From Escherichia phage Bp4, in sequence record NC_024142.2: a DNA stretch of 64,000 bases; one strand, given 5' to 3'. The first letter of the stretch is position 1; each line of letters begins with the position of its first letter. Under the pieces are notes generated by a model. The model had not been told where the DNA came from, did not search any database, and saw only the letters and a program-made list of their open reading frames with translations. A program made the translations under genes and the position numbers. Shown here piece after piece: positions 11,197 through 54,552 of this stretch.

Positions 11197-12333
11197 ATGG
11201 GCTTATTCAGTGGGAAGACTAAAGTATACGTAGCATCCTCTGTCTATAACATGGCAGGGGATATACACAAACGTCCTAACTATATGAAGACTGTAGTCAT
11301 CGGTAACATTGTTTCCAATACAGGATTCACTATGGCAGACACTATCTCTGATAGTTATCTGAATGGACCTGGTATTCGTATGCGATTGTTCTCCAGCTGG
11401 AGTAAGAACCACTATGATTCAGAAGTTGGTATGGCTGGTTCTTCGTTGGGTGTATTGGCTAAGATTGACCCTACTGTTATAGAGGGTCAAATTACACCAC
11501 CTGCTGGAGAGTCTGTCTATGTTCAGGCAGCAGAAATTGGCTTTGCTGACTTTGAGCAATGGTGTGACCAATATCTTTATGAAAATGCTCCTAGTCGAAT
11601 CATGGAACGATTCGACATAGACATCAATGAAGATACTAATGAAATTACTATGACCTCCCTGGATGGTGGTTCTACTATTAAATTCACACCTACTAACTTT
11701 GAACCAGGTGCTTTGTATCTCTATGCTGATTACTCATTCTATAAGTCCCCGTCTATCAATCCACCGGTAGAGGGACCGACTACTGTCTATGATGATGAGG
11801 ATGACTTACCTTCTACTTTGTTATGGACTACTGTTTCAAGTGATACAACAGCTAATACAACTAATCTCACTAAGACTATACAGACTCATTCTGTTTATTC
11901 TGATGGTAGACCAGATGAAGACAGTACTGTCACCGAACCAAGTGTAGATAACTGGAACTCTTACATTAAGGTTTACCGTAGAGGATTCACTGAAAAACCT
12001 GATGACGTAACTGTAGTTGTATCTGACAGGGTAATGACTCATAAAAAGTTTGGTGAGATTCAATCCAGTACTTCTGTAACTACCAATGTAGTTGATATAG
12101 GTGGTGGTGTTACTCGTACCGATACAATCACTACAACCACAGAGACACTGGTTCGTAAGTATTCCTCCCAGACTACTCGTACAGATACAGAGATGACTGC
12201 TGTTGGTACACCTAAGCTGCTTATCTATAAGCAGAACTCTGGTAACGTTGCACTAGACTCACTGTTCGATACCGAAGCTACTGATAACCGATTCTACCAT
12301 TCATTCCAATCAGGAATGATAAGCAATGGGTAG
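11197..12333 (+). CDS. virion protein, N-terminal part (probably continuous with 12525..13850 via a frame change)
   Basis: 378-aa ORF. The frame of the next ORF is open and protein-like from 12288, overlapping this ORF's 3' end. Confidence 0.5.
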   Translation: MGLFSGKTKVYVASSVYNMAGDIHKRPNYMKTVVIGNIVSNTGFTMADTISDSYLNGPGIRMRLFSSWSKNHYDSEVGMAGSSLGVLAKIDPTVIEGQITPPAGESVYVQAAEIGFADFEQWCDQYLYENAPSRIMERFDIDINEDTNEITMTSLDGGSTIKFTPTNFEPGALYLYADYSFYKSPSINPPVEGPTTVYDDEDDLPSTLLWTTVSSDTTANTTNLTKTIQTHSVYSDGRPDEDSTVTEPSVDNWNSYIKVYRRGFTEKPDDVTVVVSDRVMTHKKFGEIQSSTSVTTNVVDIGGGVTRTDTITTTTETLVRKYSSQTTRTDTEMTAVGTPKLLIYKQNSGNVALDSLFDTEATDNRFYHSFQSGMISNG

Positions 12334-14319: not shown

Positions 14320-15186
14320 ATGGCTCAGATAACGTGGAGAAATGTTGATGCACCTAACTTCTCTGGAGTTGGTGACAGCATTCGCACATTTGGTAGCATG
14401 ATTGGTAACGCCACCTCCGGCTTAAGTGATGCACTGGGTAATTTCCAGAACGCTGCCAAGCAGGAGGCTGGCAATGCCGTCATGATGAATGCTATGCAGT
14501 ACCAAGACCCGAATGAGTACCGTAATGCTTTGGCATCTGGTGCACTGTTTCAGGGGGTTGATCCTTCACTGGTAAATCAGCGTACCCTCCAAAACCTGGA
14601 TGAACGAGCAGGTACATTACTGACACAACAAGGACAGCAGGGAACCAATGACTACATTGCTTATCGCTTTGGTCGTTTACAGGATACTAACACTGCATTA
14701 GATAATGCTTCCCCGGCTATTCGTTTACTGTCTGAGGCTTATCAGTCCGGTGACCAGAACCGTATTAATGCTGCATTAAGTCAGACCCGTGATGCACTGT
14801 CTGCACTCCCTGCTGACCAACAACTGGAGATGATGGGTCGTCTACAAGGTCAGGGTGGTCAGGCTATTAATCAGGCACAGAATCGTTTTGATTTAGGTGT
14901 TGCTCAACGTAATGATGCTGACAGTCAGGCAGCTATGGGTGTAATGTCACAGATTACCCGTGGTGCTGAGAACCTAATGATGCCCGTCTGTTGGCAGAAG
15001 CATACAGTAAGAACTTGTCCCCAGTTGCACAGGCACGTTTACAGAGTTTACTGGCTAGTACTTACCGGTGTATACGGCAATGGCGTAGGTGCTGCGTCTG
15101 CTCCTGGTACTGCTGGTACTCGTCAGGGTTCCCCTTACGATGTTACTTACCAGTTTGCCGGTACATCTACCCTATTACTCAAATGA
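14320..15186 (+). CDS. hypothetical virion protein
   Basis: 288-aa ORF; its stop overlaps the next start in an ATGA arrangement. Confidence 0.45.
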   Translation: MAQITWRNVDAPNFSGVGDSIRTFGSMIGNATSGLSDALGNFQNAAKQEAGNAVMMNAMQYQDPNEYRNALASGALFQGVDPSLVNQRTLQNLDERAGTLLTQQGQQGTNDYIAYRFGRLQDTNTALDNASPAIRLLSEAYQSGDQNRINAALSQTRDALSALPADQQLEMMGRLQGQGGQAINQAQNRFDLGVAQRNDADSQAAMGVMSQITRGAENLMMPVCWQKHTVRTCPQLHRHVYRVYWLVLTGVYGNGVGAASAPGTAGTRQGSPYDVTYQFAGTSTLLLK

Positions 15187-15446
15187 GTATTGGTGATGTA
15201 ATTAAACACCAGGATGGTATGAAGTCGAATCAAGGTGCTTCACCTGTTGGTGCATTCCAGATTAACCAAGCTACTCTGAAAGACTTCGCTCCCAAAGTTC
15301 TTGGTTCAGATTGGCAAAGCCAGCCTCTTTCTCCTGAGAACCAGGATAAGATTGGTAAGGCTATCTTCGAGTCTCGTAAGAACGGTAACCTTAAAGATAC
15401 TTGGGCTGCTCTGCCTAACTCTACCCAGGTGCTTATAAGGATATGA
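15183..15446 (+). CDS. hypothetical protein
   Basis: ATG at 15183 overlapping the upstream stop (ATGA); 87 aa reading MSIGDVIKHQ...; ORF track gives 14991..15446. Confidence 0.4.
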   Translation: MSIGDVIKHQDGMKSNQGASPVGAFQINQATLKDFAPKVLGSDWQSQPLSPENQDKIGKAIFESRKNGNLKDTWAALPNSTQVLIRI

Positions 15447-29137: not shown

Positions 29138-29204
29138 ATTAATTGCCAGGGATTCCACCTGGTCCATCTGTTTTTATAGTCACTCAGATATCGTCTGGAC
29201 TGTA

Positions 29205-29282
29205 GGCATGGGTGGGAATCGAACCCACAAACCATTCAGCACTGTAGCCTCACGCTCTACCTATTTGAGCTATCACACACCA
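29205..29282 (-). other. tRNA-like element (good T-arm and D-arm, imperfect acceptor and anticodon stems)
   Basis: Minus strand: D-arm GCUC-AAAUAGGUA-GAGC and T-arm GUGGG-UUCGAUU-CCCAC; acceptor pairs 6 of 7; anticodon stem pairs poorly. Confidence 0.3.
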
Positions 29283-29572
29283 TTGATTAACTCCCCGTTT
29301 CTAATACACGGACGAGGACACTCCATGGTCGTTTGATAATCAGGACGACTCACTCCCGACTGACGCTTGGCTTATTAGGCTGCCATCAGAACAACATCAT
29401 CGTTTGCATTTATGTTATTGGTTCGTTTCTAAAAAACCGCATAATCGCTTACGAAAACTATCAAAGAGTACACTAAGCACAGGTAGCTACCCTGCCGTCT
29501 TCTCCACCTACACCGGCTACAGTGTAAACCTCCGCACGTTAGCTTAATGTACTCATTGATAGGATGTCAGTA

Positions 29573-29642
29573 GGTCGGGGGCTGGATTCGAACCAGCGAG
29601 AGAAGTAGCGACCATCTGCACATGCCTACGTGCTACCTCGAC
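29573..29642 (-). other. tRNA-like element (about 70 nt, short anticodon region)
   Basis: Minus strand: acceptor GUCGAGG/CCCCGAC (6 of 7), D-arm GCAC-GUAGGCAU-GUGC, T-arm GCUGG-UUCGAAU-CCAGC; anticodon/variable region 2-3 nt shorter than canonical. Confidence 0.3.
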
Positions 29643-30027
29643 CATTATAATAGGAGGGAGGGGACGAGTCCTCCCTTTATACCCTATATTGCATGTAAGA
29701 CCTAACAATTCGATGCTGTAGGTAGCTATGCTATCCGACATTTAACCCAGCCATATAGGGCTTATGTGATTAAAATGCTCAACATTGAGCGGTTAGTTTG
29801 ATAAGGGATCTGAAGCCTTATCCCAAAGATACTAACCTTTGGGATATAGCCTATCATTCAGAAATGGCCCCTATAGGGAGAGGCCATTGATTAACCCGAA
29901 TGTTGCTTTACATTTTCTGTGATAACCCATTCTTAAAATAGTTTACCTGACGGATGGGGGCCACCCCTAGCGTCAGTGCCATACGGCAAAGATTAAGTTA
30001 AGAAAGGTTATGATAGGAGTTCCTATC

Positions 30028-30228
30028 TCAAAGGATTCTAACAGAACCCTTCACGATATTAACTACTCTTTTTAATGCTTCTACTTCACCCTCTCTATAC
30101 CAAGCATATGGTACTAAGATTTTGCAGCCTTCTGATTCAATGTGAAATGCTTTCTTTCCTTCAACGGGTTCTCCACCCATGAAAGAACTAACCTTTCCAT
30201 TGAGCCAGTGAATAGTAAATTTGTTCAT
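30028..30228 (-). CDS. hypothetical small protein
   Basis: 66-aa ORF at the 5' side of the minus-strand replication block. Confidence 0.35.
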   Translation of the reverse strand: MNKFTIHWLNGKVSSFMGGEPVEGKKAFHIESEGCKILVPYAWYREGEVEALKRVVNIVKGSVRIL

Positions 30229-50476: not shown

Positions 50477-50716
50477 TTACATTTGTAACCTGGTTCTGCC
50501 TTTGTTGGACAGTGACCAAATCAGTGCTACTACCCAGAATACCAGTGACCAGCCTAATACTATATTAAGCACGCCAATGCCCCACTTAGAGGCATGGCCT
50601 CGTGCAAAAGCAATGATAGTAGGGATAAGGTATACAGCTAATATAAACAACATAACAAGGATTGCTGCTAAAGATTCCATGATGGTTCCTATGTGGGGTT
50701 GAGTTAGTTTCTTCAC
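50477..50716 (-). CDS. small membrane protein
   Basis: 79 aa, two hydrophobic segments. Confidence 0.4.
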   Translation of the reverse strand: MKKLTQPHIGTIMESLAAILVMLFILAVYLIPTIIAFARGHASKWGIGVLNIVLGWSLVFWVVALIWSLSNKGRTRLQM

Positions 50717-50972: not shown

Positions 50973-51479
50973 TTATTTACTGCTTCTTGCAGCTACTGGT
51001 TTGTTTTCCTGGTTCTGATACTTGCCATTGTAATTAGCAGGTTCCTGAACCAGATGAAATAATACTTGAGCTATCCCAGAACCAGCCGGGATATGCAGTT
51101 TCTTACGACCGTGATAGACAAGTTCGAGGGTAAGATACCCTTTCCATCCTGGTTCTATTACGGTATTGAACACAGATAATGCACGTCTTGCCCAGGTAGA
51201 CTTATCGTGAACGATGGCTACACAGGAAGGAGACATGTTGAACTTCTCAATTGCTGAAGCCAATGTGAACTTACCGAGATGGCGTGATACTTGATTTCCA
51301 TCAACGACTTTCACCATTGGAATCAACCCAAATAAGCGATAGAAGGTAATATCTTGTTTGATACGAATATCATAACCAGCTTCACCCAATCCATAGCTTA
51401 CACCATGCTCGGATACCTTACGGTCTGGGACATCCAGCAACTGAGATGAACGATAAAGAGAATTACCATTAACAACCAT
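50973..51479 (-). CDS. dCTP deaminase / dUTPase-family protein
   Basis: Motifs VSYGLGEAGYDIRI and PAGSGIAQV resemble the dCTP deaminase/dUTPase fold; 168 aa. Confidence 0.5.
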   Translation of the reverse strand: MVVNGNSLYRSSQLLDVPDRKVSEHGVSYGLGEAGYDIRIKQDITFYRLFGLIPMVKVVDGNQVSRHLGKFTLASAIEKFNMSPSCVAIVHDKSTWARRALSVFNTVIEPGWKGYLTLELVYHGRKKLHIPAGSGIAQVLFHLVQEPANYNGKYQNQENKPVAARSSK

Positions 51480-51997
51480 TATTTCATTCCTTTAGGGATA
51501 TGAACTACCTCCCCAAAAGGTACGGTAGCATTAGGATTATTCAGAACACACCAGATGATAGGAATATCAAATGGTAATTCTTTCATTGGGCGAACATACA
51601 TATCGGAGAATATGATTGCAGCGGTTGGCTTATTCTTAATAATCCAATCACGTACTGGTTCAAGGCTTGTACCACCACGACCAGTAATCTTAATCTCTTC
51701 AAAAGTATCTTCTTCAGTGATGTCTATTTCTTCCTGGATAATATCGTCGAAGGTAATTAGTGACATCTTCTTAGGATTGAACTGACTTTTAACGTAGGCG
51801 ACTTCTGAGTTAAAACGCAGAGAGTCAGCACTACTAATAGAACCAGATACATCCTCAAAGTAGGCTAAGTGACGTAGACGTCCTTCATCATCTTCTAAGG
51901 AAGGTAGATAGATGTCAGTGTAACGACGGTTGGGTCTGGCCCACGTATAATGTGTGTCATCAATGTCGGTAAAAAGTTCATCAGAACTTCCTGCCAT
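51479..51997 (-). CDS. von Willebrand factor A (vWA) domain protein
   Basis: MIDAS-like DVSGSIS and GRGGTSL motifs. Confidence 0.55.
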   Translation of the reverse strand: MAGSSDELFTDIDDTHYTWARPNRRYTDIYLPSLEDDEGRLRHLAYFEDVSGSISSADSLRFNSEVAYVKSQFNPKKMSLITFDDIIQEEIDITEEDTFEEIKITGRGGTSLEPVRDWIIKNKPTAAIIFSDMYVRPMKELPFDIPIIWCVLNNPNATVPFGEVVHIPKGMK

Positions 51998-52051
51998 GGA
52001 ACCACTGGTTTAAGGAATTGGGTAATAACCTCTTCCATACGACCAGCACCT

Positions 52052-52651
52052 TTACCAGGCATCTGTCCACCAGCCATTTTCTGGCTCTGCATTGCACGTA
52101 CTACGTTGTTGACAACAGCACCCTGGGACTGCCCGAAGTGGGGATTTCATGTCGCCAGCAAGACCTGCTCCAGCACCCCCTGACGGCTTCTGCCTTTTCT
52201 GAGGGTTCTTCATCAGGTCATCGTAGATGTCTTCTTCGACCCATCCTTTATATTGAGGGTCTTTGCAAATGCCTTCATCAATGCCAGTGAACTTGTAACC
52301 ATCTTCTTCTAACTGAAGGTTAATGAAGTGGTCACAAGCCTGGTTCCAGACTTCTGGGTCACGGCTTCCACGTCGGATGTCGTGTAGATATGCCACATGC
52401 CATAATTCATGCATAAGCACTGTTTCTCTTACATCTGGACACATCCAGATAAAGAAATCTGGGTTGAAATGGAGTTCTATCCCATCAGTACATGCAGTGG
52501 GACAATCCTCACGTTTCCATGAGAATTTAAGACTACACAGTAATGAACCAAAGAAGGCTGCGCTGCGACCTAAAAAAGCCTGCGCTTGGATTCTATCGTA
52601 CTCCCTCATTAGCTGCTCATCTGTGAGACTATGCGTAGGTATACTGTTCAT
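52052..52651 (-). CDS. putative zinc metallopeptidase-like protein (HExxH)
   Basis: HELWHVAYLH motif; partners with the vWA gene; C-terminal 30 aa look non-protein-like. Confidence 0.5.
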   Translation of the reverse strand: MNSIPTHSLTDEQLMREYDRIQAQAFLGRSAAFFGSLLCSLKFSWKREDCPTACTDGIELHFNPDFFIWMCPDVRETVLMHELWHVAYLHDIRRGSRDPEVWNQACDHFINLQLEEDGYKFTGIDEGICKDPQYKGWVEEDIYDDLMKNPQKRQKPSGGAGAGLAGDMKSPLRAVPGCCCQQRSTCNAEPENGWWTDAW

Positions 52652-52983
52652 TAGGGTGCTCCATGATTGGGGTGATAGCCATACAGTTTTTCAGCCGCTT
52701 TTCTGGCGTCTATGGCATCTTGCTTGTCTGCAAAAGTGCCCAAACTTACCAGACGTGTTCCATCAGATATAGCTGCATACCAGATGGAATCACGCTTGTG
52801 CCAGTACACACCAGTAACACCACTGGAATTAGTTACCCGTTTCTTTTGGTTTCTGGTGTTAGTTCTGCTGTCTACTAATCTAAAGTTACTTAGAAGGTTA
52901 TTAACCCTATTGTGGTCTAGGTGATCAATCTGCATACCTTTCGGGATAGGTCCATTGTGCATTTCCCATATGACACGGTGCAC
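52651..52983 (-). CDS. HNH homing endonuclease with AP2-like domain
   Basis: HNH box QIDHLDHNRVNN and AP2-like GVYWHKRDSIWYAAISDGTRLVSLGTFADKQDAIDARKAAEKLYG. Confidence 0.75.
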   Translation of the reverse strand: MHRVIWEMHNGPIPKGMQIDHLDHNRVNNLLSNFRLVDSRTNTRNQKKRVTNSSGVTGVYWHKRDSIWYAAISDGTRLVSLGTFADKQDAIDARKAAEKLYGYHPNHGAP

Positions 52984-53136
52984 TTTGTAACTTTTGCCCT
53001 TATAGTTGAAGCATAAATAACCATCGCTATTTAGATTACCTACCTTTTTCCAGCAATGCCTCTGGAGGCTACTGTAACTTTCCAGAATAGCTCCCCATTT
53101 ATGTAAACGAGTATGTCATTCCAGTTCATGTTGTGA

Positions 53137-53637
53137 TTACCCGTGAATGTAGCGAGAGATATTAGCAGCAGCCTTACGCCATTCAGGGGTAGCCTGAAGA
53201 TCTGGTAATGCATTGCCTACTGTACGGAAGTACAGAATCTTATGGGTGAACGTTTTAAAGCGTTCAATATACTGAAGAACATCAGCAAAGTTTTCTTCAG
53301 TAGTTTTGTTAGCCAGATGGTTAACGGTAGCCCAACACAGGTTGTTATCTTCTGGTAGTGCACAACCCATAGGGTCTTTGACTACTTTTTCAATCGTAAT
53401 GATACGATTGTATACCTGAGTGAACTGAACAAACTCTGTAGCCTTACCAGCAGTAACGTGACCTGAATAGTAGATAGAATCTTCATCAGGAAGAGCACCT
53501 TCTGGTAAGTTCTTGAGGTCTTTATTAACAAAGTCCCAAGTACGAGGGCAACAGAACGTTTTGTTCTTATGTGCTGGGTCGAAGTCATGCAGATAACCAG
53601 GGTTAGCATGTAAGAATGCAACCAGACGTTCATCCAT
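53137..53637 (-). CDS. AAA+ ATPase, C-terminal part (after frame change)
   Basis: 166-aa ORF whose frame is open from about 53645; continues the ATPase in the -1 frame. Confidence 0.5.
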   Translation of the reverse strand: MDERLVAFLHANPGYLHDFDPAHKNKTFCCPRTWDFVNKDLKNLPEGALPDEDSIYYSGHVTAGKATEFVQFTQVYNRIITIEKVVKDPMGCALPEDNNLCWATVNHLANKTTEENFADVLQYIERFKTFTHKILYFRTVGNALPDLQATPEWRKAAANISRYIHG

Positions 53638-54188
53638 TGCTGAGGAATCATTACATCTTCAACAAAGATGTCGAAGTTAAGTTCCATTTCAAAGTGAACC
53701 ACACGAGACTGCATTGCAGTACCCAGTGGGTTAACAATGGCACGGTCAGTAGCTTTGTTACCAGCACAGACAATCATCACATTAGGATGAAGTTTTTTCT
53801 GACCAGTCATACGGTCTAGAATCAGTTTATATGCAGCAGCTACTACTTCTTTCTTAGCTGAGTTGAACTCATCAAGGAATAAGAGCCAGCCATTATACCC
53901 TTCTGGTAATTCATCTCCCTCAATTGGGAATAAGTCAGCGAATGGAATAAACTCTGCACGGTCACCATTACGGAATGGTAAGCCAGAAAGGTCTTCCGGG
54001 GCAGAAGTTGACAGACGATGGTCTATCAACTTCATACCAAATTCTTCTGCAATAGAACGAATGATTGCAGATTTACCCATGCCAGGTGATGAAGTCAGGA
54101 ACGGTACGTTACCTGCTTTCAAAGCACGGATAATAAAGTTACGAGCTTGACGTGAATTACATACGGTCAAGGAGTCAATGCTTGCCAT
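53382..54188 (-). CDS. AAA+ ATPase, N-terminal part (real coding probably ends near 53640)
   Basis: Walker A SSPGMGKSAI and Walker B LLFLDEFN; after VHFEMELNFDIFVEDV the ORF becomes low-complexity (likely out of frame). Confidence 0.6.
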   Translation of the reverse strand: MASIDSLTVCNSRQARNFIIRALKAGNVPFLTSSPGMGKSAIIRSIAEEFGMKLIDHRLSTSAPEDLSGLPFRNGDRAEFIPFADLFPIEGDELPEGYNGWLLFLDEFNSAKKEVVAAAYKLILDRMTGQKKLHPNVMIVCAGNKATDRAIVNPLGTAMQSRVVHFEMELNFDIFVEDVMIPQQWMNVWLHSYMLTLVICMTSTQHIRTKRSVALVLGTLLIKTSRTYQKVLFLMKILSTIQVTLLLVRLQSLFSSLRYTIVSLRLKK

Positions 54189-54222: not shown

Positions 54223-54552
54223 TTAAGATTTAGTGCAGGGATAGGCCTTGTGTACTGAGTACACAACAATTTGAGATGTATTCTTCATCTTGAGGATTGC
54301 AGAGTCATAAATAACCACTTTGGCAATCTTAGGCAGAATGACCGAATATTTAATACCTTCTGGAACACAGTTATCTGTGCTCTCGATGTAAGAGATCATA
54401 CTGCCCATGAAGAAACCTTGTCCGAACGCATCACGAGTGTCATCCAGGTAAGCCTGAGCACCTTCCAGAATTGGTTCTGGTTCAATTGCTTGTGCACTTG
54501 GGGCTAAAGCTATCAGTGCAGCTACTGCAATACCTTTAAGTAAAGTTTTCAT
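54223..54552 (-). CDS. secreted/periplasmic small protein with signal peptide
   Basis: N-terminal MKTLLKGIAVAALIALAPSAQA signal-like sequence; 109 aa. Confidence 0.45.
   Translation of the reverse strand: MKTLLKGIAVAALIALAPSAQAIEPEPILEGAQAYLDDTRDAFGQGFFMGSMISYIESTDNCVPEGIKYSVILPKIAKVVIYDSAILKMKNTSQIVVYSVHKAYPCTKS

Follow-up and report, generated by a model that had tools for sequence, protein, structure and literature searches.

Gene content of the gp24-gp25 locus

The reference record of Escherichia phage Bp4, an N4-like Gamaleyavirus, contains a group of open reading frames (ORFs) that correspond to gp24 and gp25 of phage N4. We analyzed this module, which lies on the minus strand at positions 51479-54188, within a stretch of 64,000 nucleotides of record NC_024142.2 (hereafter, the window, to which all coordinates refer). 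As deposited, the module is divided into the short ORFs listed in Table 1, and the products of 268 and 199 amino acids (aa) exactly match the deposited Bp4 proteins YP_009032032.1 and YP_009113232.1, respectively (72,583-bp record). Alignment with the related phages PD38, St11Ph5 and G7C located five positions at which a single base is missing. When the five bases were reinserted, the region encoded gp24 (350 aa), a gene for an HNH endonuclease and gp25 (391 aa), all identical to those of PD38. The identity of the genes, their domain architecture, the conservation of their motifs, their co-conservation and the artefactual nature of the breaks are described below. Taken as a whole, the region is very probably the Bp4 copy of the N4 gp24-gp25 core pair, with an HNH gene in the gap between the two genes and with frame breaks that are under-calls of homopolymers.

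An original prediction, made from the letters of the window, had described three adjacent proteins on one strand (an AAA+ ATPase, an HExxH protein and a vWA protein), interrupted by a homing endonuclease and a frame break. The ATPase was correctly recognized: its ORF starts at 54188 on the minus strand and encodes the Walker A and Walker B motifs SPGMGKS and WLLFLDE. The HELWH and DVSGS motifs were likewise located correctly on the minus strand, but they belong to one 391-aa chain and not to separate proteins, as is the case in each of the 120 best relatives. A single Pfam domain, DUF2201_N, extends across two of the deposited reading frames (Table 1), and the "HExxH protein" and the "vWA protein" are therefore pieces of one gene. 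After repair, the module thus consists of two genes, gp24 and gp25, instead of three. An ORF with HNH_3 and AP2 matches does lie between the ATPase and the HExxH ORF; however, it fills the intergenic gap and interrupts neither gene. Finally, what had been taken as one frame break characteristic of the module is a set of five single-base deletions, which are part of 34 homopolymer deletions across the window.

Table 1. Genes, motifs, frame breaks and deposited ORFs of the gp24-gp25 locus in the Bp4 window.
Feature	Position	Strand	Remarks
gp24 homologue, MoxR/AAA_5-type AAA+ ATPase (by sequence)	53137..54188	-	350 aa repaired; 268-aa and 166-aa ORFs as deposited
gp24 Walker A (P-loop), SPGMGKS	54069..54089	-	from translation
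gp24 Walker B, WLLFLDE	53868..53888	-	from translation
gp24.1, free-standing HNH_3 and AP2-like homing endonuclease gene	52651..53129	-	159 aa repaired
gp25 homologue, zincin-like DUF2201_N and vWA-like DUF2201	51479..52651	-	391 aa repaired; 199-, 65- and 172-aa ORFs in three frames
gp25 zinc-binding/catalytic motif, HELWH	52397..52411	-	from translation
gp25 vWA MIDAS motif, DVSGS; site completed by T329 and D351	51839..51853	-	
Frame break in gp24	53635..53636		base lost from GGG run (CCC on plus strand), GGG to GG
Frame break in HNH gene	53049..53050		base lost from A6 run (T6 on plus strand), A6 to A5
Two frame breaks in gp25, 5 bases apart	52134..52140		C5 to C4 at 52139; G4 to G3 at 52134
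Third frame break in gp25	51975..51976		T6 to T5 (PD38 reading)
268-aa ORF with AAA+ P-loop	53382-54188	-	Pfam AAA
166-aa ORF	53137-53637	-	different frame; overlaps the 268-aa ORF
57-aa ORF	53040-53213	-	
110-aa ORF	52651-52983	-	Pfam HNH_3 and AP2
199-aa ORF with HELWH	52052-52651	-	Pfam DUF2201_N, positions 3-155
65-aa ORF	51895-52092	-	Pfam DUF2201_N, positions 198-239
172-aa ORF with DVSGS	51479-51997	-	Pfam DUF2201 (vWA-like)

Frame breaks in the Bp4 record

Over the module region, no substitution separated the window from PD38, and the only differences were five single-base deletions, all of them in homopolymers; one fell in gp24, one in the HNH gene and three in gp25. When the comparison was extended to the whole 64 kb, we found 3 substitutions and 34 single-base deletions. 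All of the deleted bases were missing from the window, and nearly all of the deletions were homopolymeric (for example, those at 12298, 14974-15426, 35024, 38152, 38530, 40079, 45304 and 46734). Three of the deletions broke DNA polymerase I and two broke rIIA; primase and several structural genes were also hit. The module region shared 99.9% identity with PD38, and its identity with about 55 other Gamaleyavirus phages (G7C-like, N4-like) was 91-96%. Both St11Ph5 and G7C possess intact gp24 (1053 bp) and gp25 (1176 bp) over the same stretch. The two ORFs are also intact in PD38, although its record annotates gp25 from a later start. A phage with the genome as deposited could not form plaques, and a ratio of 34 indels to 3 substitutions is not that of genome divergence. 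On this comparison of sequences, we therefore judge the frame breaks to be sequencing or assembly errors and not biology.

The same breaks were present in only one other record, that of Escherichia phage vB_EcoS_Uz-1 (OP312987.1), which is also 72,583 bp long. Although 3807 substitutions, with a bias to third codon positions, separate the last 64,000 bases of Uz-1 from the window, the two are collinear and show no net indel, and over the HNH gene they are 100% identical. The Uz-1 record resembles a consensus built with Bp4 as the reference, from which it would have inherited the errors, and for this reason we do not count it as independent support for the breaks.

If the breaks were real, Bp4 would carry a decaying, pseudogenised gp24/HNH/gp25 module that is dispensable in its lineage. 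The identical breaks in Bp4 and Uz-1 would agree with such decay, as would the number of deletions in this 2.7-kb region, five of the 34 against an expectation of 1.4 (Poisson P=0.016). We rejected this excess as meaningful, since equally dense clusters occur elsewhere in the window, at 14974-15426 and 29162-30073, and Uz-1, base-for-base collinear with Bp4, of equal record length and with the same HNH gene, is not a second witness. Further, PD38, which is 3 substitutions away over 64 kb, has every ORF intact; the like deletions in DNA polymerase I, primase, rIIA and structural genes are incompatible with a plaque-forming phage; and 34 of 34 changes being deletions, nearly all of them homopolymeric, is a signature of sequencing chemistry. 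Pseudogenisation is therefore extremely improbable.

The breaks might instead be decoded by programmed ribosomal frameshifting or transcriptional slippage, which would yield full-length gp24 and gp25 in a regulated manner. The breaks do lie in homopolymer runs, on which slippage is possible in principle. However, three separate events would be needed for gp25 alone, and the runs, of only 2-5 bases in the window, are short and lack a context of the X XXY YYZ type. Moreover, the relatives encode the same proteins in a single frame, and the same deletions occur genome-wide, also outside the larger annotated genes. We regard the probability of recoding as close to nil.

The Bp4 reference record, which is also the RefSeq record, thus contains about 34 homopolymer errors, by which gp24, gp25, DNA polymerase, primase and other genes are split into spurious ORFs. 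The fragments are now in protein databases as separate proteins, and at least one later record, that of Uz-1, seems to be an heir to the errors. For the window, the main value of the present analysis is the correction of this record.

Domain architecture of gp25

Repaired gp25 matched two Pfam families, DUF2201_N (E=1.8e-56, 192.2 bits; cut-off 23.2) and DUF2201 (E=1.2e-33, 116.3 bits; cut-off 26.4), in agreement with the DUF2201-type peptidase for which the original prediction had proposed a profile search. It also matched PHROG 1314 (E=2e-143). The corresponding domains, PF13203 and PF09967, occur in a single chain of 368-396 aa in all of the 120 best of 1228 matches. When gp25 and a profile of the gp25 family were compared with the PDB, no solved relative was found; there were marginal matches to integrin I-domains, which covered only the region of the metal ion-dependent adhesion site (MIDAS).

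An AlphaFold model of full-length gp25, calculated for a homologue of 96% identity with 47 sequences, had a predicted local distance difference test score (pLDDT) of 80. The model of the 199-aa N-terminal ORF of the window had a pLDDT of 84, with values >90 for residues 10-150. The top fold matches of the N-terminal domain were all zincin peptidases (BlaR1, 7.1; selecase, 6.6; jannalysin, M48, Wss1, Spartan and ArdC), and in the model this domain appears to adopt the zincin fold, with a mixed sheet and an active-site helix. The C-terminal domain has a Rossmann-like vWA fold.

All 80 of the viral homologues have H81, E82, H85 and D107 of the zincin domain and D268, S270, S272, T329 and D351 of the MIDAS. 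The invariant D107, on the next long helix after HExxH (H99-116), is a candidate third metal ligand. Of 80 bacterial homologues, 66 have the full zincin and MIDAS set, 68 have the zincin residues and about 76 have the MIDAS residues. We conclude that gp25 is a single protein that combines two domains, a zincin (HExxH) domain at the N-terminus and, at the C-terminus, a vWA domain whose MIDAS is complete.

Both PHROG 1314 and RefSeq (Bp4, St11Ph5, ZQ2, HK2, N4 and many others) apply the label "HNH endonuclease" to the gp25 family. In contrast to this label, Pfam detected only DUF2201_N and DUF2201 in gp25 and no HNH domain. The label looks like a mis-annotation that has been propagated. NCBIfam gave no match for gp24, the HNH protein or gp25.

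Classification of gp24

gp24 matched Pfam AAA (E=5.7e-6) and PHROG 1297, "ATPase" (E=1.3e-133). Conservation was assessed in an alignment of 12 phage and bacterial sequences, which also served as the family profile. Within this alignment, G38, K39 and S40 of Walker A and F104 and D106 of Walker B (E107 is the next residue) were invariant, as were N144 (sensor 1), R162 (arginine finger) and R216 (sensor 2). When the family profile was compared with the PDB, it matched the AAA domains of Midasin (3e-29), NorQ (1.6e-5), MoxR 2r44 (1.6e-3), CbbQ (2.5e-3) and RavA (9e-3), as well as activators of the NtrC type. The matches to Midasin, NorQ, MoxR, CbbQ and RavA place gp24 in the MoxR/AAA_5/midasin clade, and thus bear out the MoxR-type relationship that the original prediction had suggested for examination by profile. 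By its sequence, gp24 is classified as a MoxR/midasin-type AAA+ ATPase in which all catalytic motifs are present.

In Shigella phage pSb-1 (L089, 1958-3878) and Escherichia phage PW8 (L090, 1960-3880), gp24 is split after about residue 68 by an insert of roughly 870 bp that carries a different HNH endonuclease ORF. The PW8 insert gave a sub-threshold full-length match to the Rfam Group I intron (L090, 2872-3161; 25.6 bits, E=7e-4). These features suggest an intron-borne homing endonuclease in the two phages, which is absent from the window.

The HNH gene between gp24 and gp25

The repaired product of the intervening gene matched Pfam HNH_3 (E=1.4e-17, 63.5 bits; cut-off 24.8), PHROG 99 (E=4.5e-56) and the PADLOC family "HEase" (E=8.7e-10), whereas its AP2 match (E=7.8e-5) was below the gathering score. 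The gene starts 7 nt past the stop codon of gp24, and its own stop codon overlaps the ATG of gp25 (TAATG). St11Ph5 possesses no HNH gene, and its gp24 and gp25 are 7 nt apart. Similarly, in most of 57 related records the match extends over only 84-86% of the query and leaves out just the HNH gene. In G7C and PD38, a 480-bp HNH gene, gp24.1, is located between gp24 and gp25, so that Bp4, G7C and PD38 have a gene at this site while N4 and St11Ph5 lack it.

The alleles at the site vary: that of PD38 is close to that of Bp4, that of Moonfish is 80% identical, and those of G7C, the UE-S5/UE-M phages and Mimir124 are roughly 65% identical. Judged from these sequences, such presence and absence together with divergent alleles are typical of free-standing homing endonuclease genes. 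G7C gp24.1, which is annotated as similar to EndZ of phage TLS, likewise has an HNH_3 and an AP2-like domain. The Bp4 gene thus shares the intergenic site and the presence/absence polymorphism with the free-standing HNH-AP2 homing endonucleases of phages; its AP2 match is below the Pfam threshold, and cleavage and homing are predicted activities.

Co-conservation and distribution of the pair

Co-conservation of the genes in relatives had been set as a test of the original prediction, and for gp24 and gp25 it was strong. A gp24 homologue adjoins a gp25 homologue in 73 of the 74 viral loci with sufficient upstream sequence, almost always directly upstream and on the same strand. In bacterial genomes and metagenome-assembled genomes, the two are adjacent in 61 of 64 loci. 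By tblastn, gp25 homologues were detected in 696 phage records, including N4-like phages of many hosts and the jumbo phages K64-1, CMSTMSU, PA5oct and Hallingskeid (24-31% identity), and on 93 plasmids. The K64-1 record itself annotates adjacent "gp24-like" and "gp25-like" genes.

The neighbours of the pair in bacteria are typical of mobile elements. They include PRTRC protein E, ThiF, RadC/JAB, ParB_N, TraM of conjugative transposons, integrase and an Sbno-like helicase, and also RNase H, siphovirus Gp157 and the DNA polymerase III beta subunit. All-against-all clustering of the neighbours at 77 bacterial loci revealed no further universal component, and the neighbours were lineage-specific. 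A gene of ~290 aa accompanies the pair in 57 of 80 bacterial loci and usually lies between the gp24 and gp25 homologues (for example, L019, 5126-5980 and L040, 5067-5981). Its match to Pfam DUF3150 is weak (E=0.003), and we refer to it as DUF3150-like. A search with a hidden Markov model at maximum sensitivity did not find this gene in the window or in the whole PD38 genome (best E about 0.6). Absence of the DUF3150-like gene is associated with loss of the catalytic Glu of the gp25 homologue (Fisher P=1e-5). The loci without the Glu are essentially one clade, and both losses may represent a single evolutionary event.

One group of environmental viral contigs (L150-L170) has a gene of ~220 aa between the gp24 and gp25 homologues (L163, 4282-4983), and a paralogue of this gene downstream of gp25. 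We considered whether it is a diverged DUF3150-like protein; this was ruled out by hhalign (probability 0.1%). Another locus (L173) is on pRBH2-3 of Acinetobacter baumannii (NZ_CP110465.1), a 75-kb record filed as a non-mobilizable plasmid. Genes for a DNA-directed RNA polymerase, an AAA ATPase, an HNH endonuclease and a gp25 homologue are arranged there in N4-like order, and pRBH2-3 may be the genome of an N4-like phage or a phage-plasmid.

The surroundings of the module in Bp4 are those of an N4-like phage. The ORFs of the window include RNAP2, ThyX and dCTP deaminase, and PD38, which is collinear with the window, has the virion RNA polymerase (vRNAP), RNAP1, RNAP2, a gp17-like protein, dCTP deaminase and ThyX in N4 order. 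Directly upstream of gp24, a 109-aa ORF with a signal peptide (MKTLLKGIAVAALIALAPSAQA) is located at 54223-54552 on the minus strand; in relatives, it is annotated as Rap1a/Tai4, a family of type VI secretion amidase immunity proteins. Downstream of the dCTP deaminase gene, a small membrane-protein ORF at 50477-50716 on the minus strand is the counterpart of G7C gp27.1, by annotation an Imm-like "immunity to superinfection" protein.

Proposed mechanism and possible roles

By analogy with CbbQ-CbbO, NorQ-NorD, RavA-ViaA and Midasin, gp24 and gp25 most likely constitute an ATP-driven remodeller/protease composed of a MoxR-type ring and a zincin-vWA adaptor; the formation of a complex and proteolysis are both inferred from this analogy. 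In the proposed mechanism, gp24 would assemble into a ring and, through ATP hydrolysis, pull on or remodel a client protein. gp25 would be the adaptor of the ring, and the MIDAS metal of gp25 would grip an acidic residue of the client (or of the ring itself). The zincin domain would then cleave the engaged protein, which would result in a split, FtsH-like arrangement. Such a two-component remodeller/protease would be expressed with the middle genes, that is, those of replication and nucleotide metabolism.

Several observations weigh against parts of our interpretation of the locus. The catalytic Glu is replaced, with all else kept, in ten bacterial homologues (from Desulfobacterota and Thiotrichaceae), and proteolysis is thus not indispensable for every member of the family. 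The AAA_5 score of phage gp24 in Pfam is 16.9 bits, compared with a cut-off of 22 bits; the bacterial homologues score above it (25-29 bits), and it is only through these relatives and the family profile that the predicted MoxR/midasin placement of gp24 becomes firm. For all members, complex formation and the ATPase and peptidase activities of gp24 and gp25 are predicted by analogy. Lastly, the verdict of error on the frame breaks comes from comparison with the relatives and from how implausible it is that a phage could be viable when its DNA polymerase is frameshifted three times.

The distribution of the pair bears on what the proposed remodeller/protease might do. It could aid the establishment of incoming mobile DNA by using ATP to remove or cleave a protein that belongs to the host or is bound to DNA, such as one involved in defence or associated with the nucleoid or replisome, and this role would be common to phages, plasmids and integrative and conjugative elements (ICEs). 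Consistent with such a role, the family extends across N4-like phages, jumbo phages, the 93 plasmids and many integrated elements, and its neighbours (ParB_N, RadC/JAB, ThiF/PRTRC, Sbno-like helicase, DNA polymerase III beta and RNase H) are typical of leading or establishment regions. In N4-like phages, the pair occupies a middle-gene position beside dCTP deaminase and ThyX, and zincins that act on DNA-bound proteins (Wss1, Spartan and ArdC) are among the structural neighbours of gp25. However, these structural neighbours are nonspecific, as BlaR1, M48 and the minigluzincins score higher; no PADLOC or anti-defence family was matched; and guilt by association is weak evidence. A role in establishment is accordingly put forward as a tentative one.

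The same context can be set against a role of the pair as a virion-assembly chaperone and maturation protease. This has been proposed for the homologous pair of jumbo phages, by analogy with Acidianus two-tailed virus (PMC7824862). The pair is kept in every N4-like phage as well as in jumbo phages, and, a few genes further upstream, the same strand carries a virion decoration gene (gp17), as an assembly function might lead one to expect. Yet homologous pairs are common on plasmids and integrated elements that have conjugation or partition genes (PRTRC_E, ThiF, ParB_N, TraM, RadC and integrase are such neighbours) and lack virion genes. In N4, the pair is among the middle transcripts (PMC4193335); in Bp4, it is packed with dCTP deaminase and ThyX, and no terminator-like site was found from 55410 to 50783 on the coding strand. 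A role in virion assembly appears rather unlikely from this evidence.

A third candidate is a chelatase-like machine that inserts a metal cofactor into a phage metalloenzyme, in the manner of CobS/CobT, BchI/BchD or NorQ/NorD. NorQ, CbbQ and BchD are among the sequence or fold relatives of the pair, and enzymes of nucleotide metabolism are among its neighbours. Nevertheless, neither Pfam nor NCBIfam gave a match to the CobT, CobS, NorD or CbbO families, the N-terminal domain of gp25, in contrast to the helical ones of those adaptors, is a zincin that conserves the catalytic Glu, and the bacterial context is that of mobile elements and not of metabolic operons. Cofactor insertion is thus very unlikely. 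We rank the candidate roles in the order of establishment or host takeover, virion assembly and cofactor insertion.

A broader proposal, which we consider speculative and on present evidence unlikely, is that the phage pair and the bacterial triad with the DUF3150-like protein are one widespread ATP-driven protease system of mobile DNA, which clears a host or DNA-bound protein for establishment. Such a system could act through anti-defence or through remodelling of the replisome or nucleoid, and N4-like phages, jumbo phages, plasmids and integrative elements could all have it in common. The DUF3150-like protein could be a regulator or a substrate of the peptidase, given that the only bacterial clade without its gene also lacks the catalytic Glu.

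Comparison with known systems

The original prediction had implied that the module was new, but the gp24/gp25 pair is already known. Published lists of N4-like core genes include both gp24 and gp25 (PMC4193335, PMC7650795), and the pair of jumbo phages has also been described (PMC7824862). They are 2 of the 14 core genes of N4-like phages, belong to the middle transcripts in N4 and are described as of unknown function (PMC4193335, PMC2784036); both are in the pan-proteome table of the Schitoviridae (PMC7650795). Literature searches on N4 gp24/gp25, DUF2201 and DUF3150 yielded no experimental functional test for any member, and the CRISPRi-ART and HIDEN-SEQ papers do not cover gp24 or gp25. The pair is one of the few universally conserved gene pairs of the Schitoviridae without a known function, a question that is already recognized. 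The link to the triad of plasmids and ICEs, together with the intact ATPase, zincin and MIDAS sites, offers clear point mutants.

The genes of N4 are direct orthologues of those of Bp4, with Bp4 gp25 being 61% identical to N4 gp25 over 98% of gp25 (tblastn). In G7C, the orthologues are annotated as "similar to gp24/gp25 from N4", and the gene order is the same (gp17.x, gp24, (gp24.1), gp25 and gp26 dCTP deaminase). The pairs of Bp4 and N4 show no biological difference; what differs is the Bp4 record, with its error frameshifts, and the HNH gene between the two genes, which N4 lacks.

In group 2.2 jumbo phages, a MoxR ATPase is accompanied by a vWA cochaperone with a metallopeptidase at its N-terminus (Iyer et al., 2021; PMC7824862). 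The same study proposed that the pair takes part in the assembly of virions and in proteolytic processing, and pointed to the MoxR-vWA pair that Acidianus two-tailed virus needs for tail development. Bp4 shares this two-gene architecture, while the identity is only 24-31%. The proposed assembly role fits poorly with the homologues on plasmids and ICEs and with the middle-gene position in N4-like phages.

Among the MoxR-type ATPases that work with a vWA adaptor (CbbQ-CbbO, NorQ-NorD, RavA-ViaA and CoxD-CoxE, and Midasin, which has a MIDAS domain of its own), the profile places gp24 in one clade with Midasin, NorQ, CbbQ and RavA. The MoxR-vWA adaptor systems likewise have a C-terminal vWA domain with a MIDAS, encoded in adjacent co-directional genes. 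In contrast to gp25, in which the N-terminal part is a zincin peptidase domain, adaptors of the CbbO/NorD/ViaA type have a large helical domain there. Further, gp25 gave no family-level match to CbbO, NorD, ViaA or CobT (in Pfam, only DUF2201_N and DUF2201; in NCBIfam, none). The contexts differ as well, since pairs of the Bp4 type occur in mobile elements whereas the MoxR-vWA adaptor systems have a metabolic client enzyme.

The vWA-MoxR-VMAP ternary conflict systems (Kaur et al., 2020; PMC7159879) resemble the Bp4 pair in that a MoxR-class ATPase stands beside a vWA protein in a conflict or mobile context. However, gp24 scored 14.2 bits for bpMoxR (cut-off 27 bits), and gp25 joins its vWA domain to a peptidase. 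The Bp4 locus, where the neighbours are the HNH endonuclease, dCTP deaminase and small ORFs, contains neither a VMAP gene nor an effector array. In PADLOC, gp24 gave matches at chance level (DolB, E=0.006; IetA, E=0.065) and gp25 none.

The bacterial triad is composed of a MoxR-like ATPase, the DUF3150-like protein and a DUF2201_N-DUF2201 protein, with E values of 1e-14 to 1e-43 for the ATPase and 1e-35 to 1e-59 for the DUF2201 protein. The triad and the phage pair have the same gene order, strand and motifs, and differ in the DUF3150-like gene, which is present in the triad only.

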